A stretch of 60,078 bases of DNA from Actinomycetota bacterium (GCA_023481285.1 JAMCWL010000071.1:1-60078); one strand, 5' to 3'; positions 1-51,907 are shown, counted from the first letter of the stretch. Numbers and translations are program-made. The notes: generated by a model not told the origin, from the sequence alone.

Positions 1-363
1 CGCTCGCTCAAGGTCGTTCAGGAAGGGAGGGTTAAGAGACTGGCGCCCCTTGAAGCCCTTGATTGCTATACTAAGGAAGTCGCCCGGAATACCTTGCATC
101 CAATTAATTGAGCCGACGCGGAACCCGGGGCGATTCAGAGCATTGAAGTGCCGGCCTGTGTTACGGATATAGTCTTGTTCCGGCTTCATGAAGGAATCGA
201 CCCCATAATCCGATTCTGCCACAAGTGACGCCGGCTGGTTAGGATTATCAGGGGGTCCTTGCATGACCGTGCGGGCAACAGAATATGTATGATCTCGATG
301 GACCGATTTCCACCACCTGCCGTCCGGATCGACGGCGTTCGTCGGGTTGTCTTGAGCGTACAT
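1..363 (-). CDS. Orphan Rhs C-terminal toxin cassette 2 (3' end outside window)
   Basis: Not in the ORF track because it runs off the window. ATG at 363 follows AGGAAGA. Translates MYAQDNPTNAVDPDGRWWKSVHRDHTYSVART...GRHFNA, 67/75 aa identical to the Rhs core/tip junction (ungapped DNA match 140-365 vs 1984-2209), then diverges (LNRPGFRVGSINW...). Confidence 0.85.
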   Translation of the reverse strand, partial: MYAQDNPTNAVDPDGRWWKSVHRDHTYSVARTVMQGPPDNPNQPASLVAESDYGVDSFMKPEQDYIRNTGRHFNALNRPGFRVGSINWMQGIPGDFLSIAIKGFKGRQSLNPPFLNDLERA

Positions 364-371
364 ATTTCTTC

Positions 372-785
372 CTATGATTTCCTGGCAACCATATTCCTGC
401 TGATAATCCCGCCGATAAGACTACCTGCAGACGCTAAAAACACGATCGTCAGGAACAATATCAACTCTAATTGACGCCAGTTTGGCGCTGCGCCCGGTCC
501 TGCATAAGGCTGAATTGCTGATAGAAAGAGCAAGTAAATTATCCAAGCGTTGGCTAGGATTCCATAGTGGACTGTGGGTTTGCGCACAATAAGCCCGGCA
601 AGAAAACCGGCCATGAAAGGTGGAAGAAAATAAACTAGTATCCCTCCCAGCAAACCTGGACCTTTTTCAGCCCCATAAATAGTTATAAAAACACCAGCCC
701 CAACTAGCATAGCCGCATATGAAACTGCGTTTCCGGCGACCACGATGATGATTATGCGTCCAAGAATGCTCATGGTGTGTTTCAT
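372..785 (-). CDS. Putative membrane immunity protein, paralog 2 (about 4 TM)
   Basis: Follows an orphan toxin cassette. Shares PxFxAGFLAGxIVxKPxxHYGILANA and ASAGSLIGGIxxRxMxARKS with 1152-1562. Start moved to ATG 785 (AGGACAGG upstream). Confidence 0.75.
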   Translation of the reverse strand: MKHTMSILGRIIIIVVAGNAVSYAAMLVGAGVFITIYGAEKGPGLLGGILVYFLPPFMAGFLAGLIVRKPTVHYGILANAWIIYLLFLSAIQPYAGPGAAPNWRQLELILFLTIVFLASAGSLIGGIISRNMVARKS

Positions 786-814: not shown

Positions 815-1150
815 TCACTGCCAGGTGAGATAGACATAAGCTTCTATCCAGTCATACGTAGCCATTATTGTTTCGCGTAGCGGTTCTTGATTTTGTGGTT
901 TGGTATCGTCGTCGGGTTTGACCGGCCAGAGCCCTGGAAAATGTTTTGAAAAAGGCCATTCCCAACCTTTCCCGCCGTGCGCATACAAATCCTGCAGGCT
1001 GTGAAGTCCTATCCCAAGACGATTTAAGCTTCTGAACTCCGCTTCCTTGGCAAGGTCGAGAGCCTTATTGCGAGTATCCGGTGAACTGGCGCTTACAGCA
1101 AGGGCGTAGGCTCTCTGAGCGAGTCCCGCGTAGTCGAGCGCCAATTTCAT
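815..1150 (-). CDS. Orphan toxin cassette 1 (C-terminal half of the Rhs tip only)
   Basis: MKLALDYAGLAQRAYALAV...LNRLGIGLHSLQDLYAHG...WPVKPDDDTK parallels the end of the main Rhs protein. 28-nt exact match 1114-1141 = 1889-1916. ATG at 1150 lies 1 nt after the immunity gene stop. Confidence 0.8.
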   Translation of the reverse strand: MKLALDYAGLAQRAYALAVSASSPDTRNKALDLAKEAEFRSLNRLGIGLHSLQDLYAHGGKGWEWPFSKHFPGLWPVKPDDDTKPQNQEPLRETIMATYDWIEAYVYLTWQ

Positions 1151-1151
1151 T

Positions 1152-1562
1152 TCATGATTTCCTGGCAAGCATATACCTGCCAACAATTCCTCCTATAAGA
1201 CTACCGGCAGAAGCTGGGATGATAACAACCAGCAAAAGGAACAAGTATTGTTTTGGCTCAAATCCAGGGCTTTGATAAGCTTGGATTCCTCCCAGAAGGA
1301 GCGAAGAGATTATGAAGGCGTTGGCTAGAATCCCATAGTGGATCGCGGGTTTTTGAACAATAAAGCCTGCTAAGAAGCCCGCTAAAAAAGTTGGTAAAAT
1401 ATACATTAGTATACCACCAAGCCAAGCTGGAACAGCTTCAAGCCCAAAGATCTTTGCGACAAGCGTGCCACCAATCATCATAAACACGTAGGAGGCAAGA
1501 TTGCCAAAAACCAAGACGGCTGCCACTTGCTCAAGAATGCTTTTGTCGTCTTTCATGTCCAT
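1152..1562 (-). CDS. Putative cognate immunity protein of the Rhs toxin (about 4 TM)
   Basis: Small hydrophobic ORF immediately downstream of the Rhs gene; paralog of 372-785. Confidence 0.75.
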   Translation of the reverse strand: MDMKDDKSILEQVAAVLVFGNLASYVFMMIGGTLVAKIFGLEAVPAWLGGILMYILPTFLAGFLAGFIVQKPAIHYGILANAFIISSLLLGGIQAYQSPGFEPKQYLFLLLVVIIPASAGSLIGGIVGRYMLARKS

Positions 1563-1589: not shown

Positions 1590-4500
1590 TCAGTCCCAGG
1601 CGCTGTAGACATACCACCATATCCAGTAACCCGTGTCTGCGTATGTTTTCATGAGGGCTTCCTGGTTTTGTTGTTTGGTGTCGTCGTCAGGATTGACGGG
1701 CCAACCATTATGGTGTTTGTCATAAAAAGGCGGAGCGCCTGTGCCGTGCGCGTACAAATCTTGAATGCTATGGAGGCCGATGCCGAGCCGATTCAAGCTT
1801 TCAAATTCCGCTTCTTGGGCAATGGCGCGAGCCTTATTGTAAATATCCTGGGAATACGGCTTGGCGTACACTGCAAGCGCATAAGCCTTCTGAGCGAGTC
1901 CCGCGTAGTCGAGCGCGAATTGGAACTCTTCGATCATGTGGCCAGCTTGAGACGGATTGCCGTACGAAGGCCATTCCCAAAACGCATTGAAGTGCCGGCC
2001 CGTGTTGCCGATATAATCTTGTTCCGGCTTCATGTTAAAGTCGACTCCGTAATCCGATTCAGCCACGAGCGACGCCGGCCAGTCAGGATTATCAGGAGGT
2101 CCCTGCATAACTGAGCGAGCAACATCAAATGTATGATCCCGATGGACCGATTTCCACCACCTACCGTCCGGGTCGACGGCGTTCGTCGGGTTGTCTTGAG
2201 CGTACATATACCGGTTGGTAGAGCGGACAGGGTCTTCGCTCAAGAACCTCTTGACCGTCGGCGAGTAGTATCTCGCTTTCAAGTAGTAGAGACCGATCTC
2301 CTTGTCATAGTAGTAGCCGGCGTAGCGGATTGGGTTGTCGGCTCCGGGAGTTGAAGTTGGCTCGCTCGTGACTTTGCCCCACGGATCATATGCGTACGTC
2401 CCCTGATCGAGACCGATCACGTCGCCATGGCCGTTGAGCTCATAGTAATAGGTGGCGCCATCCCTTGTCACCGAGAAGGGCCTCCCCAAATTATCCCAGG
2501 TGTAGACGGCGGTAATGACGCCGCTCGAATTGGTCTCTGAGACTAAGTTGCCTTTGTTGTCGTAGTGGAAGTAGATGGTAACACCGTTGACCTTTTTAGA
2601 CTTCCTCAGGCCGTTGTAGTAGTAAGTATATTCCGCAACTACGGTCCCTCCCCTCTCAACTTTGGTGAGCTGCCCATAGGCGTTGTATGTATATGTATTG
2701 GTTCCGTCGAAGGTCAGGTTGCCGTTGGCATCGTAGGTGAAGCCCGTGTTGGCCACCGTGTCCGTGCTTATCTGATTTGCGATGTCATAGGTAAATGATT
2801 GTGCGGTGGTCGTGCCTTCTTTAACCGAGAGAAGGTTCCCCATGATGTCATATGAATAAGTGGACGTCGTATCTCGCGACGGGTCATACCAGCTCATAAG
2901 CCTGTTGAGTTCGTTATAAGTAAATCTTTCGGTCTTACCGGTATCGGTCCTGAACACCGATGTTATGTTGCCGTTCTTGTCATAGCCGTAGGTTAATTGG
3001 TATGCTCCCGGTCGTCCACCGGTTCTGCTCTGCTGAATGATGCTTATAAGCCTTCCACCGGCGTCATAGTTGTATGCCTGGATAATACCGCCTTTCGCCA
3101 CCTGGATGAGGCGACCCGCCGAGTCATAAGCGTACGTATTCTGAGTGCCGCTGGGATCGGTTAGCGTCGAGACTTGACCGCGAACGTTGTAGGTCTTGTG
3201 CATCGCATACGTCTTGGTATCGCCGCTCGACGTTATCGACAGGTCATTTTCCGTCTCGCCGATGTAAGGCGTACGGCTTATCGTACCGCCCACGGTATCG
3301 GATATAGAGGTTGGTTGACCGACGCTGTTGTAGGTATACGAGTAGATTTTTGCAGTGTTATCGGCAGTATTTGATTCGGTAACGCTGTCCAAATACCCGG
3401 TTACGGTATTGTAGTTATACGCGAACACCATCGGGCCTGTGGAAGAGCTTCCCACCGTCAACCTGTTGAGCGAATCATATTTCTTGGTCAGCTGGTCGCC
3501 TCGAGGAAGTATTTCGGTAACCTGCTCACCCTGAGAAGTCGTGCTGTATTGGTAACGCCTTATCCTTTTGAGGGGATCCGTCACACTCTCGACATTGTTC
3601 GTCGGCGTCCACGTGTAATTGGTTGTATAGAGGTCGGCGGGATTGTAACGGACGAACACGTCTTTGACGCCATTCGTGTCGCCGGAAATCAGGTTGCTCG
3701 CGTCGGATGCGAATGCGACAACACTACCGTTTGAGCTGATCACGAGTTGATCGCTTGTACCGTTGCCTTGAAGGCCGCTATCAGAGACACTAATCCTTGT
3801 GGTGGTGTGGTTTAAGCGGTTGTAAACGAAAACATCCTGAGCATTGTTTGTATCACCTGGAACGAGGTTGCTGGCCATCGAACTGAAAGCTACCGAGACT
3901 CCATCCGCACTGATAAAGGGGTTGGTGCTGTTGTCGTTGCCCTGTTCGCCGGAGCTCGAGACGCTCACGCGCTCGGTAGTGTGATTCGTGCGGTCATGGA
4001 CAAAGACGTCCGATTTGTTGTTGGTATCCCCCGGAACTAGATTGCTTGCATTAGACTCAAACGCTACATAGCGCCCGTCGGCGCTAAACGACAGGCGATA
4101 GTTGCCGCTTTGCCCGTTTCCCTCTGCTCCTGAACTGGAGACGCTAACGCGCTCAATTGTGCGGTTCGTGCGATCGTAGACGAAGACGTCCTGCTGTCCG
4201 TTGGTATCGTTAGGAACGAGGTTATTCGCATAGGACTGGAATGCCACATAGCGCCCGTCCGCGCTGATCACAGGTTTTTCGCTCCAGTTATTTCCTTGAA
4301 CCCCCGAATTTGAGACGCTCACGCGCTCGATAGTGTGATTCGTACGGTCGTAGACAAAGACGTCCGAGCTATTGTTTGTGTCGTTCGGAACGAGGTTAGT
4401 CGCCCAGGAATTGAAGGCGACGTAGCGCCCGTCCGCACTGATGGAGGGGTGTCCACTTATCGTAATGCTATGTCCTGAGTCATATGCTTGTTCACCTGAA

Positions 4501-7500
4501 CTCGAGATATTGACGCGCTCGGTCGTTCCGGCAGCGCGGTCGCGGACGAAAATGTCCGGCGAGCCGTTAGTATCGTTGGGGACGAGGTTACTGAAGAACG
4601 AAACAAAGGCGACAAAGCGCCCATCATAGCTCACCGATGAGAGGTAACTGCCGTTATCGATACCGCCGGGATTGTCGCCTTGCGCTCCGGTGCTCGAGAC
4701 GCTGACGCGCTCGATCGTACCCGTTTGGCGATCATAGAGAAAGACGTCGTTCGTGTTGTTGGTGTCGTTTGGCACCAGATTGTTAGCAGCGGAGCTGAAT
4801 GATACGTAGCGACCGTCAGCGCTGATGGAAGGAGTGTATTCGCTTGCACCGTTTGCCTGCGCACCGGAACTCGAGACGCTCACCCGCGCTATATTACCAT
4901 AGACGGCATCGATGGCCGAGGCGGTGCGCGCATCCCTTACCTTTACGAGTCTCCCTAACCAATCGTAGTTATACCAGGAGGTATTGCCTTTGGCATCAGT
5001 AAACGATGTAAGGTTATCTTGCGAATTGTAAGCACGACGTGTAACATTCCCGCTAAAATCCGTGGTTGTAGTTTCGCGACCGAGACTGTCGTATTCGTGG
5101 AAAGCGGTATTTCCAAGCGGATCTATTTGGCTCGTTACTCGATCAAAGCTATCGTACGTGTATGAGGTAATCTCAGTGCGTGTAAGTTTGACGTTATCAA
5201 ACCAAGCGCTTCCGACGGCAGAATGCATCTGTGCGGATACATAAGCCCAACGAGCTCCATTCGGCGCTATCGTACGGACAATATAGCGCTTCCAGCCGGT
5301 ATCCCCAGACACCATGGCAGTTGCATAGGTGCCAAGATTATTGTCATTAGCATCCCGGTAGTTGATCTCAATTCGCACACCACCTTTATAGTATCTAGGA
5401 TAAGGAGGGGCTCCCTGAATTGCTCCTTGCCCCCAATAAACGTTGTCTCCAATCACGCTTTGCGTCTTGATGGAGCCCGATAGCGCCATATCTTCTCCTC
5501 CCGTTACGCCAATCTTGGCCGACGTGTAGGATGCGCTTCCTGAAGATTCGAGCGAGAGCTTTGCGGATTTAGCCCCGCTCCACATCTCGCTTGTGTCAAG
5601 CGAAGCTCCTGATGGGCTTGCGGTCCAGTAGTTAGTAGAACCCGAGGTTGCGCTTTCAAAGCTTGAATTCTCGACATAATCGAAGAGCGTTAAAGCGTAG
5701 TCCTCCCCGGAAATTATGGGCGATTCGAGCTGCACGCCGTCAAACCACACATCTCCGGTCGCATTCATTAATCGAAGCGCCACAACCGCAGTTACAGCGT
5801 TAGATGGCGCTGTAGCGATTACAGGCTGCGAGTAGTTGCCGGTGCCGGCCCATGCCAATGAATAAGCGGTCCCGGCGATGATGAGGTTATTGGATGAGTC
5901 ATAGAACTGGATACCGTAGTCGGCTCCACCGGTCCCTGAGGGTACGGTGACGTTACTTAACCGCATATTGGCGGAAAGAGTTAGCTTCTGATTTGGGCTG
6001 ACGCTTATTGCATTGTTGCTATTACTATAGTAATTTGTGCCAGCAACAGAAGCTGAGATCTTAACGCTATTTTGTCCGTAATTAGCAATGCCCGTGTCTA
6101 CCGAAAAAGTTGCGTTACCCGTGCTTGTCCAGCGATCAGCTACTCCGCCTGTCAACCTCTCAAAGCTCCCGTTCTCTACGAGATTAAAAGTAGGTGCGAC
6201 CGGATTGGTATTCGCCGTTACGTTTCCCCTATCATCATAGGTAGATGCATATGCATCCTTTGCGGGGGCACTCATATCTGAGAGCCGATTGGCCTCATTT
6301 TTGACATCTGTTAAGCTGGACGGTGGTTGCGTGGATTGTGCCGAGGACTGTGCCGAGAAGACAGTTCCTGTCGACCCCTTCGTAACCGTGCCATCTCCAT
6401 TAAAGATAAGTCTGATCGATGATCCATCCGGTCTGCGATAGCCGGCCAGATGGTTGCGGCCATCCCAGTAATATTCGGAAACGCTGCCAAAGGGATCGGT
6501 AACCTTGGTTACATCTCCGTGAAGGTTATAATTGTAGCGAGTTGATTGCCAAGACGCATCCGCAATTGTCAGGTAGCCCTGTCCCGCGGTAAAGACCGCA
6601 ATTTGCACGCCAAGCGCATCTTTTACATATTGAGCACTGCCATCGCCAGCCACCCCATATGTCGTGAGTTGCTGATCTCCAGCGCTCGCAAAGGTTCTAA
6701 TACCGCTTAGTAGGTTACTGTTGTCTGAATAAGTAAACGTGGTGGGATGGGCATCGCTATTTCGTACCGAGACAAGACGGTTTTGCGAGATCTCGTGGCT
6801 GAATTTCCCAAGCTCCGTCCCTGCCGTATCCGAATCATTCAGAGTCACATCGACCAGGCCGGTGGTATAGGCAAAGTTTAGGCTCCTACCTGAAGGATAG
6901 GTGATCTTAGAGATTTTCCCCTGATCATACGAATAGTTTGTTGTATTGCTGCTTGAGCCAATGACTTTTATGGGATTGCCCTGCGTACTGAAGGTAACCG
7001 TTGAGCTATCAGACCTGGTCCACTCGTACGTTCCGTCAGCCTTCTTGATAATATCCTCGTCGAGACCGGCTGGACGTGCGTAGGAGCCGTCCGGTTTTTT
7101 ACCATAGTAGAACCGGGTACCCGTGGCCTCCGTTAACACCAAAGTGCCGTCAGCCCGTGAAATGTCAAGTGTGGGTATGCCAAATCGCCATCCGCCACCA
7201 ACCGGAGCGATGGAAGAAGCGGTTGTGGAGTCAACTGAGTTGTAGTAGAGAGATAGCTCGATGGCCGCTCCTTTAACATCGGGAACCTTAAACTCATCCT
7301 TTGAGACGATCAGATTACGGTTGGCTACGTTGACGCTAGCACGGTAGCGATCTCCGAGACCATAACTCCAATACTCCCAGTAGGGCTGGATGCCGAGCAT
7401 CGGCGTCGACTCCACCGTAAAGGTGGATTCCGTCGATTGGCGCACGTTTCCGGCCTTGTCGAAGGCTTTGACGTACCAGCTGTGGGCTCCATCTGTAAGG

Positions 7501-10376
7501 GCCGAGGCCGTCTGCGTCTCGGTCGATGATGGCGGGATGTTGTCGACCTTCAAAGCGCCGTCGACGTAGAGCTGGTACTTGTCGAGCCCCGAGCCGGTAT
7601 CGGTGGAGTCGCTCCAATCGAAGAGCGGCCAGGTATCGTTCGTGGTGGACCCGTGCGGCGGGCTCTCTAACGTGAAAGAATCGGGCGCCGTTGCATCGAT
7701 CTTGACCGTCCAGGTGCTTGTCGACTGCTTGATGCTGCCTATACCAACCGCCTTAACATACCAGGTATGCGAGCCCTCTGGAAGAGGAGATGACGGTGTA
7801 GTCGAAGTCTGCGTCTTTGGGATGTTGTCTTTGTTGAGCGCCCCGTCTATCCATAGCTCATAATGATCGAAGTTGTTGCTCGCTTCCCAGGTAAATGCTG
7901 GCATATTCCCCGTTTTTGACCCGTTGCCTGGAGATACTAGATCGAACGCCCTGGGAGCGGAATAGGTTATAGTTAGATAGGGCTTGTTGGATGAGGATTC
8001 GCTGGAAGCATAATTCAGGAAATAGCGTAGACCCATTCCTTCGCCACGGAAGTAGTAAGCTCTGGTAGCGCTCACGCCGGCATTGGTGAAGGCAGTAATA
8101 TCTTCTGTACCATCGCCGGTAAAATCTCCTCCGACGTATGAGGCGTTGTTGTTATCCCAACCGCCGGCCGCGCTCTGCCAGAAATTATACGGATTCTTAA
8201 ACCGAGAAAAATCATTGACAAAACTGTACCCCGCTGTGGTTGAAGCACCCACACCCTTAAAGGCGACCGCATCCATTAAACGATCGCCATTGACGTCGGA
8301 AGCAACGAATTTCGATGCGCTCCAATCCCAACCGCCAGGTCCGGAATCCCACCATATCCTAGGAGATTGGAAGGAAGCCCTGTTAGATGGGAACATCATC
8401 GCCTGGGTCTGCCCGTCGGCGTAACCCTGGAAAGCGACAATATCTGCGTAACCCCCGATGTTGCCATAGTCGCCCTCCGAAATGTACTTAGCGGAACCTG
8501 CCGCCCAGTGCGTGTCGCTCCACCAGGTAGCAGGAGCGTTGAAGGAAGTTCCGGTGGACGTAAGCACCTTTATCGCTGTGCTCGTGCCGCCATTGTCATA
8601 AACGATAGCGAGGTCCCACTTGCCATCGTTGTTGTAGTCGCCTGATAACGGCGTCGAGCGGTTCCAATCCCAGCTCGTCGAGCTCCACCAGGTCGCGTTG
8701 ATGCTTGAAAATCCGGTGCCGGTCGAGTTGGTCAGAAACAGACGGGCGTTCGTGATGTTGGTGCCGCCATTGTAGAGTATCAGGACATCGGATCGGCCGT
8801 TGCCGTCAAAGTCACCGGTCACCACTTTTGAGGAACTCCAGTTGAGCTCTCCAGGAGCGGATGTATACCATACGTTAGGACCGCTAAGCGATGAGCCGTT
8901 CGAGGGAAAGACCAGAATGCTTACGGTGCCGTCACCGTTATCGTAAAGAGAGACGGCATCCATATAAGAGTCTGGGTTGAACCTACCTGATGCAAACTTA
9001 TGCCTTGCCCATGCCGATGAAGTGCTCTCCCATGCTAAGAAAGGCCCGACGGCGATAGTCGTGTCCTCGTGGAGAAGAAAGCCGTAATTAGTCCAGACGC
9101 CGCTGAGGTAATTCTGCACGGCGGATTTGACATCGAAGCTAAGCCAACCGTTTTGAAGCCCTTGCGGAGTTCTCGTATTCGTAAGCGATTCGCTTACTGG
9201 GCGTGTGTTCCACGTGACGGTGCTCTTGTCCCACGAGGAGGTTATTCTATTCAGATATTCGGGCGTGCTTGAGGGCTGAGCAACACCGCTTGCGTACATG
9301 CTTAGGGTCGCCGTATCGATGATGTAGCCGTTCAGCAAAGAGACGTCGAATTTGATGAGGGAATAATTATTTTTCTGGCGATCATCAAAGCCACTATAGA
9401 GAGTTGTTCCGACAGAGTAGTTAGAAGTCGGATATCTCTCAGATACGTAAGTATCAGCGCTCGGATTTAGGGTAAGCGTCGGGTCGATATAGACTGGATA
9501 GACTCTCTTTGAATCGTTTAGCCAGCTTGCGCTGGGCATCATCTCCACGAAAAGGCTTTCTCTGACAGACGTTATGCTTTGGGTTATATCCTCGGAGAAG
9601 CTCGGCTCTCCGATGGAAGCTGTTGCATCCTTACTCGAGTCGATCATGTAGGGCTTCGTCATATGGAAAGCCAGCTCACCGGTCTTTTTATCGATGAAAG
9701 AAACCTCCTTGTCCTTTTCCTGGCGGTAAGAAAGACCGGATAAGTCGAGGCTATATGAGAGGTTCTTTGCCGCTTCTTTGTTCGGAATGACTATCGTCTC
9801 TTTTAGGCCAGTTGAGGTAACCGAGTAGAAGATATCGGGACCGCCGGTGGCTGAGACATAGTAGGCCGACTCCCCCAGAACCAGCGCAAAGGGAGATAAA
9901 CCATCGGGAAGGAAGAAAGAGACTGACTTACCATTCACCTCGAAGTAGGCTTTGTCTATATTGATTTTTGGAAGGAAGACCTTAAAGGAGTTCGCCTTGT
10001 TGGTATAGCCGTTGCCATCAGGAGTCTCGATGAGTGTGTTATCGATATCCTCCCATTTTCCCATATCGCCTTTAAAATGGATGGGGCCGGAGTAGATTTT
10101 CGCCTGGAAGGTTCCGTCACTCATGAGGTAGGTTTTCGAGGTCTGAGTTCTCTTCCTAACGATCTCCTCGACTATCTTAGGCTCTTTTTGGGGCTTTGGC
10201 GTCGACGTGGTTTCAGAAGGAGGCAATGGCTGCTCGCTCGGCAATGCGGAGGTTGTGGCGGCATCAATCGCATAGGCGACCGGGATGCTAAATAACAGAG
10301 GCTCTGAGAAGAGGAGCAAAGAGAGAATAGCGGCGGTTATGTAAGATAGGGCTTCTTTCTTCAGGTGCGAGATCAT
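1590..10376 (-). CDS. Secreted WapA-like Rhs/YD-repeat polymorphic toxin (DNRLRE, FG-GAP-like, Ig-like, CBM-like and TolB-like domains; Zn-PLC/S1-P1/Het-C-like tip)
   Basis: Signal peptide ending VAYA; many YD repeats; Rhs core NPIRYAGYYYDKEIGLYYLKARYY...DPVR...NPTNAVDPDG; tip motif LGIGLHSIQDLYAH. Confidence 0.93.
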   Translation of the reverse strand: MISHLKKEALSYITAAILSLLLFSEPLLFSIPVAYAIDAATTSALPSEQPLPPSETTSTPKPQKEPKIVEEIVRKRTQTSKTYLMSDGTFQAKIYSGPIHFKGDMGKWEDIDNTLIETPDGNGYTNKANSFKVFLPKINIDKAYFEVNGKSVSFFLPDGLSPFALVLGESAYYVSATGGPDIFYSVTSTGLKETIVIPNKEAAKNLSYSLDLSGLSYRQEKDKEVSFIDKKTGELAFHMTKPYMIDSSKDATASIGEPSFSEDITQSITSVRESLFVEMMPSASWLNDSKRVYPVYIDPTLTLNPSADTYVSERYPTSNYSVGTTLYSGFDDRQKNNYSLIKFDVSLLNGYIIDTATLSMYASGVAQPSSTPEYLNRITSSWDKSTVTWNTRPVSESLTNTRTPQGLQNGWLSFDVKSAVQNYLSGVWTNYGFLLHEDTTIAVGPFLAWESTSSAWARHKFASGRFNPDSYMDAVSLYDNGDGTVSILVFPSNGSSLSGPNVWYTSAPGELNWSSSKVVTGDFDGNGRSDVLILYNGGTNITNARLFLTNSTGTGFSSINATWWSSTSWDWNRSTPLSGDYNNDGKWDLAIVYDNGGTSTAIKVLTSTGTSFNAPATWWSDTHWAAGSAKYISEGDYGNIGGYADIVAFQGYADGQTQAMMFPSNRASFQSPRIWWDSGPGGWDWSASKFVASDVNGDRLMDAVAFKGVGASTTAGYSFVNDFSRFKNPYNFWQSAAGGWDNNNASYVGGDFTGDGTEDITAFTNAGVSATRAYYFRGEGMGLRYFLNYASSESSSNKPYLTITYSAPRAFDLVSPGNGSKTGNMPAFTWEASNNFDHYELWIDGALNKDNIPKTQTSTTPSSPLPEGSHTWYVKAVGIGSIKQSTSTWTVKIDATAPDSFTLESPPHGSTTNDTWPLFDWSDSTDTGSGLDKYQLYVDGALKVDNIPPSSTETQTASALTDGAHSWYVKAFDKAGNVRQSTESTFTVESTPMLGIQPYWEYWSYGLGDRYRASVNVANRNLIVSKDEFKVPDVKGAAIELSLYYNSVDSTTASSIAPVGGGWRFGIPTLDISRADGTLVLTEATGTRFYYGKKPDGSYARPAGLDEDIIKKADGTYEWTRSDSSTVTFSTQGNPIKVIGSSSNTTNYSYDQGKISKITYPSGRSLNFAYTTGLVDVTLNDSDTAGTELGKFSHEISQNRLVSVRNSDAHPTTFTYSDNSNLLSGIRTFASAGDQQLTTYGVAGDGSAQYVKDALGVQIAVFTAGQGYLTIADASWQSTRYNYNLHGDVTKVTDPFGSVSEYYWDGRNHLAGYRRPDGSSIRLIFNGDGTVTKGSTGTVFSAQSSAQSTQPPSSLTDVKNEANRLSDMSAPAKDAYASTYDDRGNVTANTNPVAPTFNLVENGSFERLTGGVADRWTSTGNATFSVDTGIANYGQNSVKISASVAGTNYYSNSNNAISVSPNQKLTLSANMRLSNVTVPSGTGGADYGIQFYDSSNNLIIAGTAYSLAWAGTGNYSQPVIATAPSNAVTAVVALRLMNATGDVWFDGVQLESPIISGEDYALTLFDYVENSSFESATSGSTNYWTASPSGASLDTSEMWSGAKSAKLSLESSGSASYTSAKIGVTGGEDMALSGSIKTQSVIGDNVYWGQGAIQGAPPYPRYYKGGVRIEINYRDANDNNLGTYATAMVSGDTGWKRYIVRTIAPNGARWAYVSAQMHSAVGSAWFDNVKLTRTEITSYTYDSFDRVTSQIDPLGNTAFHEYDSLGRETTTTDFSGNVTRRAYNSQDNLTSFTDAKGNTSWYNYDWLGRLVKVRDARTASAIDAVYGNIARVSVSSSGAQANGASEYTPSISADGRYVSFSSAANNLVPNDTNNTNDVFLYDRQTGTIERVSVSSTGAQGDNPGGIDNGSYLSSVSYDGRFVAFVSFFSNLVPNDTNGSPDIFVRDRAAGTTERVNISSSGEQAYDSGHSITISGHPSISADGRYVAFNSWATNLVPNDTNNSSDVFVYDRTNHTIERVSVSNSGVQGNNWSEKPVISADGRYVAFQSYANNLVPNDTNGQQDVFVYDRTNRTIERVSVSSSGAEGNGQSGNYRLSFSADGRYVAFESNASNLVPGDTNNKSDVFVHDRTNHTTERVSVSSSGEQGNDNSTNPFISADGVSVAFSSMASNLVPGDTNNAQDVFVYNRLNHTTTRISVSDSGLQGNGTSDQLVISSNGSVVAFASDASNLISGDTNGVKDVFVRYNPADLYTTNYTWTPTNNVESVTDPLKRIRRYQYSTTSQGEQVTEILPRGDQLTKKYDSLNRLTVGSSSTGPMVFAYNYNTVTGYLDSVTESNTADNTAKIYSYTYNSVGQPTSISDTVGGTISRTPYIGETENDLSITSSGDTKTYAMHKTYNVRGQVSTLTDPSGTQNTYAYDSAGRLIQVAKGGIIQAYNYDAGGRLISIIQQSRTGGRPGAYQLTYGYDKNGNITSVFRTDTGKTERFTYNELNRLMSWYDPSRDTTSTYSYDIMGNLLSVKEGTTTAQSFTYDIANQISTDTVANTGFTYDANGNLTFDGTNTYTYNAYGQLTKVERGGTVVAEYTYYYNGLRKSKKVNGVTIYFHYDNKGNLVSETNSSGVITAVYTWDNLGRPFSVTRDGATYYYELNGHGDVIGLDQGTYAYDPWGKVTSEPTSTPGADNPIRYAGYYYDKEIGLYYLKARYYSPTVKRFLSEDPVRSTNRYMYAQDNPTNAVDPDGRWWKSVHRDHTFDVARSVMQGPPDNPDWPASLVAESDYGVDFNMKPEQDYIGNTGRHFNAFWEWPSYGNPSQAGHMIEEFQFALDYAGLAQKAYALAVYAKPYSQDIYNKARAIAQEAEFESLNRLGIGLHSIQDLYAHGTGAPPFYDKHHNGWPVNPDDDTKQQNQEALMKTYADTGYWIWWYVYSAWD

Positions 10377-10642
10377 CGGGTGTCTCCTTCCTTTAGGCCG
10401 GGTTTTAGATCATCCGGTGGCTTTCTGCGATCATCAGCCAGAATTCTTGGAATCGGTCTTATTCCTTCGACCGAGGTAGAACCCGGCCCCGTGCTTCTTA
10501 AGTTCTGGGTTGTAAGCTGCCAGGGCTCTTTTTTGTTGCGGTCAGTCTTTGCGTAAGTCTTAAAAAATACAAGTGCGGTTAGCAGGAGGAGAATGAAAAG
10601 GAGAACTATTGCAAGTTGCCGACGCCTGGAAATAGCGCTCAT
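10373..10642 (-). CDS. Small single-TM/signal-anchored hypothetical protein coupled to the Rhs gene
   Basis: MSAISRRRQLAIVLLFILLLLTALVFF; its stop overlaps the Rhs start (ATGA); AAAGGG upstream of ATG 10642. Confidence 0.6.
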   Translation of the reverse strand: MSAISRRRQLAIVLLFILLLLTALVFFKTYAKTDRNKKEPWQLTTQNLRSTGPGSTSVEGIRPIPRILADDRRKPPDDLKPGLKEGDTR

Positions 10643-10847
10643 CGGTGTCCCTTTGGAATAGGTGTTGTCAAACAGCGCTTTATCTAGTATACAAACGTTC
10701 AAATATCTAGCCCATGCAATAACTGCTATCATGTTTGTGGATTGATTGTCAATAGTTGACAGATCGATAAGGCATCTATTTTAATCAGTGCCTTCTTAGT
10801 GAGAATACTCTCAGCGGAAATATGCTAGGGGTAGCCCGACGGTCTGT

Positions 10848-26899: not shown

Positions 26900-27751
26900 A
26901 TGGACGAGTCACGCGAAATGCGAATCAAAGAAGAAGTGAGGGCGGAGTACGCCAGGCGCATTACTGGCGATTCTGCTTGCTGCGGTCAAAGCTCCGGTCA
27001 AAGGACCGCCCCCGGGCCAACCGGAAAGACCGCCCGAAAAATCGGGTATACCGATCAAGAGCTGGCCTCCCTGCCCGGCGATGTAGCTGAAAGCTCCTTT
27101 GGCTGCGGGAATCCCCTGGCCTTCTCGGAGGTCCGGGAGGGGGAAGTGGTCCTCGATCTTGGATCGGGCGCCGGCATGGACGTGATCCTTGCCGCAAGGA
27201 AAGTCGGCGAAAAAGGTAAGATCATCGGGCTGGACATGACTCCCGAGATGGTCGAAACGGCAAGGCAAAACGCCGAGCGGGCGGGGGTCGAGAACGTGGT
27301 CGACTTCCGCCTGGGAGAGATCGAGGACATGCCCGTCGACGACGACAGCGTTGATTGGATCATCTCGAACTGCGTTATCAACCTTTCTCCCAACAAGGAA
27401 GCGGTCTTTAAAGAAGCGTACCGGGTACTCAAGCCCGGCGGGAAGGTGCTCGTTTCGGATCTGGTCTCCTCCAACCTTCCTCAAGAGTTGAGAAAGGACT
27501 TCGAATCCTGGGCGGGATGCGTGGCCGGAACTCTGGAGGAATCGGAATACTTGGATGTTATTGAAAGAGCCGGATTTAAGGAGGTCTTCGTCGTGGATAA
27601 AGCCGATTTCACCGACGCCGTCCTTCAAAAAGCATCCATCAAAACCATCACCGATCCGGCAAACCCTCCGAAGCTTTATAGCGTCAAGGTGCGAGCCACA
27701 AAACCCTACGGAGCCGGCGATACGGAGCCGGCAAGATCAGGTCCGGGATAA
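26900..27751 (+). CDS. arsM: Arsenite S-adenosylmethyltransferase
   Basis: SACCG, SFGCGNP, LDLGSGAG, ISNCVINL and WAGCVAG motifs. Confidence 0.88.
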   Translation: MDESREMRIKEEVRAEYARRITGDSACCGQSSGQRTAPGPTGKTARKIGYTDQELASLPGDVAESSFGCGNPLAFSEVREGEVVLDLGSGAGMDVILAARKVGEKGKIIGLDMTPEMVETARQNAERAGVENVVDFRLGEIEDMPVDDDSVDWIISNCVINLSPNKEAVFKEAYRVLKPGGKVLVSDLVSSNLPQELRKDFESWAGCVAGTLEESEYLDVIERAGFKEVFVVDKADFTDAVLQKASIKTITDPANPPKLYSVKVRATKPYGAGDTEPARSGPG

Positions 27752-44390: not shown

Positions 44391-45050
44391 TCAGCCCTGG
44401 GTGGACTTTCTTTTTAGGTAGACGTCGATCTTCCTTTTGACCCTCTGGAGAGCGTTATCTACGGATTTTACATGCCGTTTTAGCTCTTCCGCTATTTCCT
44501 GATAAGACTTCGCGTCTATGTAAAGCCGCAGTACATCCGCTTCGAAATCACTCAATATCTGCCCGAAGCTCGAGCGTATTGTCTTCGCCTCTTCCCCGCT
44601 GATCACGAGCTCCATTGGATCGGCGATCTCGCAGCCGGCGAGGATGTCAACGAGCGTCCGCTCCGATTCCCCTTCGGCAAAGATGGATCTGCTAAGGGAG
44701 ATATACGAATTCAGCGGGATGTGCTTCTGACGGGTGGCGGTCTTTATCGCCGTGATCATCTGGCGAGTTATGCAAAGCTCGGCGAAGACCCTGAACGAGC
44801 TCTGCTTGTCTTCCCGATAGTCACGAATGGCCTTGTAAAGCCCGATCATTCCTTCCTGGACGAGGTCTTCTCGGTCAGCGCCGATTAGAAAGTAGGAGCG
44901 GGCTTTAACTTTGACGAAGTTCTTATACTTTTCCAACAGAAATTCGAGTGCCAGGTTATCTCCGGCGCGGGCGCTGATGACAAGTTGTGGGTCCGACAAT
45001 GCTGCGAAGAGAGAGGAGGCGTACTGGCTGGTCTTGGTGTTAGTCTGCAC
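44391..45050 (-). CDS. sigH: RNA polymerase sigma factor, SigH (spo0H)-like
   Basis: ARSYFLIGADREDLVQEGMIGLYKA, ATRQKHIPLNSYISL and KSVDNALQRVK. Confidence 0.92.
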   Translation of the reverse strand: MQTNTKTSQYASSLFAALSDPQLVISARAGDNLALEFLLEKYKNFVKVKARSYFLIGADREDLVQEGMIGLYKAIRDYREDKQSSFRVFAELCITRQMITAIKTATRQKHIPLNSYISLSRSIFAEGESERTLVDILAGCEIADPMELVISGEEAKTIRSSFGQILSDFEADVLRLYIDAKSYQEIAEELKRHVKSVDNALQRVKRKIDVYLKRKSTQG

Positions 45051-50830: not shown

Positions 50831-51907
50831 CTACTCCTTCAACTTGCTAAAGATCATGCGACCAGCCGGCGTCTGAAGGACGCTGGTCACGAGGACCTCA
50901 ACCTCTCGCCCAACATGCGTCTTTCCGCCGTCGACAACGACCATCGTCCCATCGTCCAGATAGCCGACCCCTTGACCAACCTCCTTGCCCTCGCGGATCA
51001 GATCAACAACCATATTCTCGCCGGGAAGAACGACGGGTCGCAAAGCATCGGCAACCTCATTCAGGTTGAGAACCGGCGTTCCTTGAAGGTCGGCCACCTT
51101 ATTGAGATTATAGTCGTTCGTGACGATAACGCCGCCATTGTTCAGGGCCAGCCTGACGAGCTTGGCGTCAACATCCGAGAGTTCCGGATAATCGCGCTCC
51201 AGGATTTCAAGGCGACCGTCCGATTCCCGCTGGAGCGTTTTCAGAATGTCCAGCCCGCGCCGGCCCCGGTTTCGCTTCAGTTGATCATCCGAGTCGGCTA
51301 CCATCTGCAATTCGCGCAAGACGAACCCGGGGACGACCAGCTTGCCTTCGAGAAACCCCGTCCTGACTATATCGGCTATCCTTCCATCTATTATTGCGCT
51401 GGTATCGAGGATCTTAGCCCTGGCAATTCCGCCAAGCTCGTCGATGACCGTCCCGCTCTCACCAAGCCTGCGAATGGGCACTTTGAGATCGCGACTCTTC
51501 TTGAGGGCGATGTGAACGCCAAGATATCCGAAGATGGCGAAGGCGAAGACCGCCACGGTAAATTGTAGAAAGTCGATCTTGAGGTACCCGAATGGCAAAG
51601 AAACCAGCCAGGCCAAAATGAGCCCGACTAATAGACCAGCGGTGGTGAAGACTATCTCAAAAGGGGATATCTTTTGAATTTTCGATTCAAACCAGGCGTA
51701 AGTTTTGACCAGCCGACGCCCGACGATGCCTCCGACCACGTAGCCGACGCCCGCGCCGATTATGACGAAGATTATGATTGCGAGAAATTTATAATCGTTA
51801 AATGGGGCGGGCAGCGACGACAATCCCATGCCGAACTGGTAGGCACCGATGGTTCCGACGACCACGAAGATCAATCGGATAAATTCCACCATTATAATCA
51901 CCTCCAA
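50831..51907 (-). CDS. PIN/TRAM domain membrane protein (YacL-like)
   Basis: DTSAIIDGR, TNDYNLNKVA and QGVGYLDDGTMVVV motifs. Confidence 0.92.
   Translation of the reverse strand: MEVIIMVEFIRLIFVVVGTIGAYQFGMGLSSLPAPFNDYKFLAIIIFVIIGAGVGYVVGGIVGRRLVKTYAWFESKIQKISPFEIVFTTAGLLVGLILAWLVSLPFGYLKIDFLQFTVAVFAFAIFGYLGVHIALKKSRDLKVPIRRLGESGTVIDELGGIARAKILDTSAIIDGRIADIVRTGFLEGKLVVPGFVLRELQMVADSDDQLKRNRGRRGLDILKTLQRESDGRLEILERDYPELSDVDAKLVRLALNNGGVIVTNDYNLNKVADLQGTPVLNLNEVADALRPVVLPGENMVVDLIREGKEVGQGVGYLDDGTMVVVDGGKTHVGREVEVLVTSVLQTPAGRMIFSKLKE

Follow-up and report, generated by a model that had tools for sequence, protein, structure and literature searches.

Does the self-cleavage that frees the C-terminal tip of an Rhs toxin also complete the active site of that tip? 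The question is raised by a locus of an Actinomycetota bacterium, carried on a stretch of 60,078 nucleotides (GCA_023481285.1 JAMCWL010000071.1:1-60078) that was analysed whole and is here called the window. Near its left end lies an Rhs gene whose product ends in a tip preceded by DPDGR|WWKSVH, and an earlier note had proposed that cleavage at the bar would expose the Trp1 used by zinc-dependent phospholipases C (PLCs) and S1/P1-type nucleases, making release and activation a single step. We propose that the Rhs core would cut itself between Arg2739 and Trp2740, giving the 189-residue tip a free Trp1 for zinc binding and arming it only then. The cut would license the enzyme inside the Rhs shell, with exit from the shell and zinc loading as later steps. 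Once armed, the tip would act by hydrolysing phospholipids at the outer face of a competing cell's membrane, and an adjacent four-helix membrane protein would give immunity. We put the probability of this mechanism as a whole, a self-cut that arms a zinc PLC-like Rhs tip against rival membranes, at roughly 0.6. Within it, we infer that Trp1 binds zinc through its main chain and that an extended tip would be inactive; Sec export, the phospholipid substrate and the immunity function are conjectured with least assurance.

The features on which the argument turns are the following:

1590..10376 (-), Rhs/YD-repeat polymorphic toxin gene, 2928 amino acids (aa), an intact open reading frame
2160..2390 (-), Rhs-associated core (aspartyl autoprotease plug), placed by its TIGR03696 match, its Asp positions and the published cut geometry
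2234-2232 (-), core Asp2715
2174-2172 (-), core Asp2735 of DPDGR
2162-2160 (-), Arg2739, the end of DPDGR and the P1 residue
1590..2159 (-), 189-aa toxin tip of predicted Zn-PLC/S1-P1 fold, from the model and ligand conservation
1152..1562 (-), 136-aa membrane protein with four predicted transmembrane (TM) segments, directly after the tip, putative immunity protein

The motifs quoted in the earlier note are real and close the 2928-residue frame, whose translation from 2162 to 1593 (-) reads R-WWKSVH...SDYGVD...GRHF...LHSIQDLYAH...AWD-stop. The feature had been started at 2162, which is the Arg codon at P1; Trp2740, the first residue of the tip and the one directly after DPDGR, has its codon at 2159-2157. 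The protein opens with a signal-peptide-like N-terminus (a hydrophobic stretch ending AYA, as read from the sequence), followed by CBM96, FG-GAP, Ig-like and PD40 propeller domains, RHS repeats (PF05593, E 1.4e-49), the core and the tip. The core matches TIGR03696 at 2163-2390 with 79.6 bits against a cut-off of 32.5. It holds the two catalytic Asp residues and the DPxG-x motif before a variable tip, with an Asp spacing of 20 and an Arg at P1 that are non-canonical.

Published Rhs cuts follow one geometry. Statements from cited papers refer, here and throughout, to the portions of those papers that were available. In Tse5 the catalytic residue is Asp1164 and N-terminal sequencing places the cut at Leu1168-Ile1169 (PMC10684867); in RhsA it is Asp1346, with density ending at Trp1350 and a consensus of PxxxxDPxG W/L/F (PMC8765631); in Rhs1 it is Asp1338, with the toxin starting at Ala1343 (PMC8636562). 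P1 is thus the residue four past the catalytic Asp in all three (PMC10684867, PMC8636562, PMC8765631), and Edman sequencing of Streptococcus suis WapA places its cut after His2716 (PMC12704120). Because the window protein shares this geometry of cleavage after DPxG-x, its cut is likely to fall at Arg2739|Trp2740, leaving Trp as tip residue 1, and the site named earlier holds by analogy with these four proteins. Arming is kept separate from release because the Rhs1 fragments stay associated after cleavage and liberation takes further events (PMC8636562). Arming by the cut is therefore the half of the single step that remains likely, and release drops out of it.

If the cut places a catalytic residue, its distance to the rest of the active site should be fixed wherever the tip occurs. 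Used alone as a query, the window tip matched four of 31 candidates close to it in length, with all four matches lying on contigs C10 and C27 of the same genome, and none of 229 candidates among longer proteins was confirmed as a relative. A second Rhs module of that genome (L001, 7958-8401 (-), on C54), with a four-TM neighbour, ends DPLGL|WGEKIH; its tip is 36% identical to that of the window and 47-50% identical to stand-alone genes in related genomes, and its sequence led to the wider family. Scans by the central LGxxLHxxQD pattern alone gave 33 confirmed among 279 matches in metagenomes, and 41 among 53, at 38 loci, in genomes. As controls served 30 loci with an Rhs core, drawn from 201 genomes in the phylum, together with other cores in the flanks; two loci (L110 and L113, from the unpublished genomes G001 and G048) and one core lacking DxxG were left out of the counts. 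Among 45 family tips behind a core, two of them from the window's genome, the first residue is Trp in 42 and Tyr in three, and His stands at +6 in 44. Trp1 and His6 occur together in 41 of the 45 and in none of 40 other Rhs tips, four of which begin with Trp (Fisher p about 6e-20, an overstated value since the rows are kin). The lone exception among family tips has Trp at +1 and its His at 16, and one control row, the first module of L065 (Leu1/His6), is on inspection a divergent family member.

A profile search of 1.84 billion representatives extended this picture, returning 2,587 clusters at E <= 0.001 and 819 at 1e-10. Among the best 150 clusters, 107 have a detectable core; among the remaining 43 are stand-alone genes, gene calls that are truncated and two more classes. 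His is at +6 in 107/107 of the Rhs-fused representatives, and their first residue is Trp in 100, Phe in five, Tyr in one and Ser in one; these tips were ranked by a profile that holds W1 and H6, so that their conservation is inflated, while the distance to DxxG lies outside the profile. Tip lengths run from 138 to 349 residues, and no insertion or deletion falls between the cut and His6, though they are common elsewhere in the alignment. Such a fixed distance is to be expected because a free and exact N-terminus is needed in this fold in the Listeria PLC, if that requirement is valid here. On these sequences, Trp at +1 is favoured and other residues are tolerated. A strict requirement for Trp was considered and rejected, given the Phe, Tyr, Ser and Leu found there and the Met, Ala or Gly with which stand-alone relatives start.

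The register also recurs away from Rhs cores. In ten distinct stand-alone relatives (13 loci) the start codon, as we assigned it, lies 6 or 7 residues from the His. The initiator Met would be lost when Ala or Gly comes second, as it does in all four relatives at 7; of those at 6, three also carry Gly in second place, which makes them ambiguous. These genes, of about 135-160 aa, have no signal peptide and sit in housekeeping contexts (L005-L011, L019, L057, L076); they are possibly cytoplasmic phosphoesterases of the same fold. In six further proteins (L088 1214-4246, P0089, P0095, P0098, P0109 and P0130) W1..H6 stands directly behind LGG, which we take to resemble a ubiquitin-like ending, after a leader of 80-100 residues. 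L088 adds an OTU protease domain (E 3e-14) and TPR repeats, and a cut after GG could be a second route to Trp1. In a tree of 53 rows the LGG proteins form one clade (99/82) among Rhs tips (97/81). It is about an even bet that a widespread, compact, three-zinc family of PLC/P1 fold uses the Rhs shell as a propeptide, with the residue behind the autocleavage site serving as a catalytic metal ligand, and keeps its register across Rhs autocleavage, translation start and a ubiquitin-like LGG cut.

The same register could instead have been inherited from a single ancestral fusion, the enzyme tolerating extension and the cut merely freeing the tip. By definition the cut marks the start of every Rhs tip, and the 107 include many kin. 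Moreover, 23 non-Rhs loci, three of them cut at the 5' end, hold the domain about 200-300 residues inside the protein, with no cut site identified. Where titled, these loci are mostly from Sericytochromatia, cyanobacteria and deltaproteobacteria, and in their proteins an aromatic residue usually precedes the His by five positions. The 14 that were sampled group as a single clade in the tree (100/99). Proteins of this kind may be proenzymes or may tolerate their long N-terminal extensions. A [YF]DPxG[FY]L-like motif lies about 100-150 residues before the domain in this clade (L028, L037, L039, L044, L083, L085, L089, L090 and related loci) and may be a processing site or a chance match. Against simple inheritance, the sequence between cut and His6 is free, in 107/107 tips, of the length changes that are common elsewhere; the register recurs behind a start codon and behind LGG, and one extra residue is reported to inactivate the Listeria PLC. 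We therefore regard simple inheritance as very improbable. A single origin of the Rhs fusion is itself not supported by the tree, which asks for four changes, at least two of them forced by starred branches, and has many weak branches. The register of 107/107, together with the alignment of residue 1 described below, bears on residue 1 as a zinc ligand, with one clade in which the domain is internal.

What fold would this residue complete? The AlphaFold model of the window tip has a predicted local distance difference test score (pLDDT) of 86.6 and a predicted template modelling score (pTM) of 0.86. Compared with 48,161 chains, it is closest to Clostridium absonum alpha-toxin (Z 11.6, root-mean-square deviation (rmsd) 3.3, 149 residues aligned), followed by the Listeria PLC (Z 11.0, rmsd 3.3, 150 aligned) and the Bacillus cereus PLC (Z 10.7, rmsd 3.6, 147 aligned). 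Ranks four to six are SmNuc1 (Z 8.3), S1 (Z 7.9) and 3w52 (Z 7.7), and the next, unrelated chain scores 6.7. In these six comparisons residue 1 of the model is aligned from chain residues 1, 1, 1, 27, 21 and 1, and it matches the mature first residue in 1olp, 8cqm, 1ah7, S1 (21) and SmNuc1 (27). A second model, of a more central relative, puts the same six on top, with PLCs at Z 10.4-11.8, nucleases at 8.3-9.6 and the next chain at 5.8; its top 14 Foldseek rows are all PLCs, none at E <= 0.001. Across both models the top six span Z 7.7-11.8, rmsd 3.3-3.8 and 139-152 aligned residues. The fold that the earlier note had suggested is thus what the models recover, and we consider a PLC/S1-P1 fold combined with a fixed register very probable.

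Within a set of 28 family sequences the nearest Pfam families are DUF6765 (PF20551; 17/28 members, best E 1.9e-10) and VWA7_N (PF25107; 14/28, best 5e-05). P0130 reaches 28.5 bits, over the DUF6765 cut-off of 26.6, and the window tip itself does not reach DUF6765 at E 0.1. Zn_dep_PLPC (PF00882) is matched by 7/28 members at E < 0.1 (best 0.0051), with P0099 at 22.1 bits, below the cut-off of 26.8, and Het-C (PF07217), with which the tip family shares an HxxxDxxxH motif, by 7/28 (best E 0.0059); the window tip matches neither. NCBIfam holds no family for the tip. In the Atlas the tip falls first among unnamed clusters, with the Zn_dep_PLPC, DUF6765 and VWA7_N sets at 0.91-0.95, a sub-threshold recognition value that serves as a lead only. 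Adenosine deaminase rows returned for the tip from the PDB were rejected at an E of about 1.

The candidate zinc ligands of the window tip are W1, H6, D40, H56, H130, D134, H138, H150 and D158. In the 107 Rhs-fused tips W1 is conserved in 100, H6, D40, H56, H130, D134 and H138 in 107 each, H150 in 105 and D158 in 103, and His6, Asp40, His56, His130, Asp134 and His138 are invariant in the 28-sequence alignment. SmNuc1 has nine zinc ligands, W27, H32, D71, H88, H141, D145, H151, H175 and D179 (PMC11705217). Matched by order and conservation, the nine tip positions follow the same sequence, and we put them forward as candidate ligands of a trinuclear zinc cluster. The SDYGVD motif singled out earlier is present, and its invariant Asp is Asp40 (107/107); Asp36 was rejected as a ligand, its column being Asn in 59, Asp in 31 and Cys in 14 of the 107. 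In S1 nuclease, Trp21 at the N-terminus holds the zinc ions through its main chain (PMC5201275). The main chain of W1 likewise binds metal in the Listeria PLC, in which W1A, W1E and W1K are inactive and W1F is active, and the enzyme is reported to be shut off when its N-terminus is one residue longer (PMC10576769).

The tip could instead be a nuclease or nucleotidase of S1/P1 type that the cut arms and that acts in the target cytoplasm. Its W1..H6 spacing equals that of SmNuc1 from Trp27 to His32, as the earlier note's comparison with P1 implied, and nucleases rank fourth to sixth in both searches. The stand-alone relatives lack signal peptides, from which it follows that the fold works in the cytoplasm too, and Zhang 2012 leaves Het-C between nuclease and phospholipase (PMC3482391). 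The fold scores, in contrast, lie nearer to phospholipases C. A Lys/Arg three past the catalytic Asp marks S1/P1 nucleases (PMC5201275, PMC11705217), and it is found in 11 of 100 scored tips, with Met43 at this position in the window tip.

The neighbouring genes speak to the same choice. The 136-aa protein encoded directly after the tip matches no Pfam or NCBIfam family above cut-off, and its best Atlas value is 0.89, with none at 0.9; it is the putative immunity protein. By a hydropathy rule, the next gene encodes at least two TM segments in 31 of 43 family loci, a single N-terminal hydrophobic segment in 11, which look exported, and none in one, whose product reads like a signal peptide all the same. 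A TM or N-terminal hydrophobic segment is therefore present in 42/43, compared with 25/39 control Rhs loci (p 8e-5), and is lacking in 14/39 controls. These neighbour statistics favour a membrane target, and we judge a nuclease acting in the cytoplasm improbable. Because of the membrane neighbours, the scarcity of the nuclease-type Lys/Arg and the higher scores of PLCs, we favour the membrane's outer face and, by nearest relative, phospholipid, a target that we think fairly probable.

With the same arming and the same fold, the substrate could be another extracytoplasmic phosphate ester, such as lipid II, undecaprenyl pyrophosphate or a wall-polymer linkage. The 42/43 statistic places the target at or beyond the membrane and names no substrate; the exported look of 11 of the 43 neighbours would suit such a target, as would an identity to PLCs of only 8-19% in structural alignments. 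Against this, the sole solved relatives found are PLCs and nucleases, with PLCs first in both models, and the analyses run gave no positive evidence for a wall-precursor substrate, so that we hold this alternative to be unlikely.

Besides the internal-domain clade, the stand-alone relatives and the membrane neighbours seen in control loci, several observations weigh against a phospholipase armed by the Rhs cut. Foldseek found no match at E <= 0.001 to the PDB for either model, and likewise none among viral models; the structural Z values do not reach the level of about 13 under which the tool advises caution for helical proteins, and the gap between PLCs and nucleases narrows to 0.8 Z in the second model. 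For these reasons, it is the way in which fold, register and ligands agree that carries the case for the fold. The window tip matches no Pfam family at E 0.1 and gives chance rows only against PDB sequences. The third-site ligands, the last two of the nine, fall in a low-confidence loop (pLDDT 48-54), with a spacing unlike that of the solved enzymes. The P1 residue is Arg, outside the W/L/F consensus of the RhsA paper, and in the literature searched no paper showing cleavage after Arg was found; the core Asp pair is 20 apart, compared with 22-23 in RhsA and Tse5. The window tip is also a long branch (3.59) of unsure placement in the tree, and it lacks the Asp-[Ser/Thr]-Arg motif of the family (102 and 103 of 107), having Pro-Ser-Gln instead. 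Because this motif is missing, the specificity of the window tip may differ from that of the family.

Such peculiarities might mean that the family is as described and the window copy degenerate, either uncut after Arg or catalytically weakened. The Arg at P1, a short core loop, the missing Asp-x-Arg motif, the long branch and an orphan array broken by an insertion sequence would all fit decay. Yet the frame runs unbroken over 2928 aa and keeps both core Asp residues and all nine candidate ligands, and the membrane partner is intact as well. Arg is at P1 in 11/107 relatives and in 6/40 control Rhs proteins, L065 also has DPDGR|W, and the genome of the window copy contains variant tips of 63-85% identity. 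We give degeneration of the window copy hardly any credence, and the self-armed, membrane-directed tip remains our preferred reading for this copy too.

These variant tips belong to an array of orphan modules beyond the membrane gene, listed here with the reading frame at the other end of the Rhs gene:

815..1153 (-), orphan piece of a paralogous tip, its 3' half (63% identity to tip residues 78-188), which begins where the first membrane gene stops
372..785 (-), a second membrane protein, paralogous to the first at 53% identity
138..369 (-), orphan module interrupted by the insertion-sequence end, with a core stub, DPDGR|WWKSVH and roughly the first 60 tip codons (85% identity)
1..137 (-), left end of a multicopy insertion-sequence-like repeat that ends the contig and breaks the orphan tip near codon 60
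10373..10732 (-), 119-aa open reading frame with one hydrophobic stretch, overlapping the Rhs start

By its ends, the repeat at 1-137 is presumably IS3-like. It is also found at the ends of contigs C43, C62 and C63 and inside C27. The flank of the orphan tip ends in CTC. On C27, CTC and a frame that matches tip residues 61-176 come after the right end of the repeat. A further pair of repeat ends has CGT in common. Because CTC flanks both ends and the tip frame resumes at residue 61, C10 and C27 are likely neighbours across a collapsed insertion sequence with a 3-bp target duplication. On C27 there are a further two 3' half tips and also a third gene for a membrane protein. Pieces of the repeat lie on C27 at 51273-51363 and 51721-51847, and a second left-end piece of 91 bp interrupts the C27 tip fragment near residue 176. 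On sequence, the orphans represent variant forms of one toxin. Three of the orphan tips consist of a 3' half that begins near residues 78-87 (window 815-1153; L002, C27 50277-51274), two of them right after a membrane gene, which suggests exchange within the tip instead of at the Rhs core.

Elsewhere in the genome, Rhs tips of another kind, starting DxxGL|GPK, have arrays of paralogous TPR-plus-membrane proteins behind them (C54 3167-6394, C92 16554-22366). Among the family loci, L049, L056, L067, L071 and L095 carry two different family tips in tandem Rhs modules. Upstream of the Rhs gene in the window lie hemW and lepA. The window also encodes a SigH-type sigma factor (44394-45050, above NCBIfam cut-offs) and an arsenite methyltransferase (26900-27748), and its other annotated genes are housekeeping genes: lepA, holA, comEC, leuS, cysS, gltX, disA, radA, a ClpC-like ATPase and lysS.

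If the proposed mechanism is true, the exact position of the Rhs cut is part of the chemistry of the toxin and would provide a built-in safety catch during export. A tip screened in the cytoplasm behind an added start Met would then score as harmless, a blind spot for such screens. The proposal would also give a testable function to a large DUF6765-like family, and would make several unrelated-looking membrane or exported proteins candidate immunity factors.

Among known enzymes, the tip is most like the zinc PLCs (1ah7, 8cqm, 1olp; PF00882), with which it shares a predicted fold at Z 10.4-11.8, the order of His and Asp ligands and, as proposed here, a mature Trp1 and activation by proteolysis before it, propeptide removal being what activates the Listeria PLC (PMC10576769). 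It differs in its size, about 190 residues compared with about 245, in sequence and in its HxxQDxxxH spacing; and whereas those enzymes are cut by Mpl or host proteases, the tip would be cut in cis by the Rhs core. With the S1/P1 nucleases (S1 5fb9, SmNuc1 8qjl) it shares the predicted fold at Z 7.7-9.6, the W1..H6 spacing and the order of nine ligands, whereas the tip family has no conserved Lys/Arg at Asp+3, lower Z values than with PLCs, and membrane or exported neighbours. DUF6765 (PF20551) and VWA7_N (PF25107) are the Pfam families that match the tip family best, and the term DUF6765 occurs in no paper of the partial literature collection searched.

Toxin tips of this fold have been proposed before. 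Tox-HET-C is a proposed polymorphic toxin tip of PLC/S1-P1 fold, listed with PVC-metallopeptidase and without RHS repeats or an immunity protein (PMC3482391); YdjM is a C-terminal module on RHS proteins (PMC8557891), and Het-C occurs on VgrG (PMC6838775). The window family is a different subfamily, and the available portions of those papers do not tie the cut site to a Trp1 ligand. Nor was a coupling of the Rhs cut to a Trp1 ligand found in the literature searched, which was partial and without supplements and on this point yielded at most Zhang 2012; the supplements of Zhang 2012 may list such architectures. Rhs autocleavage, Trp1-dependent PLCs and PLC-fold Rhs tips are each known singly, and it is their coupling and the strict register that these searches did not turn up. 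With the autocleaving Rhs and WapA proteins (Tse5, RhsA, Rhs1 and S. suis WapA) the window protein shares the YD shell, the two-Asp core, the predicted cut after DPxG-x and the arrangement of tip, putative immunity gene and orphan modules. In those systems, as far as the available texts describe them, the cut is required for freeing the tip; in the window protein, it would in addition provide the active site with one of its metal-binding residues.

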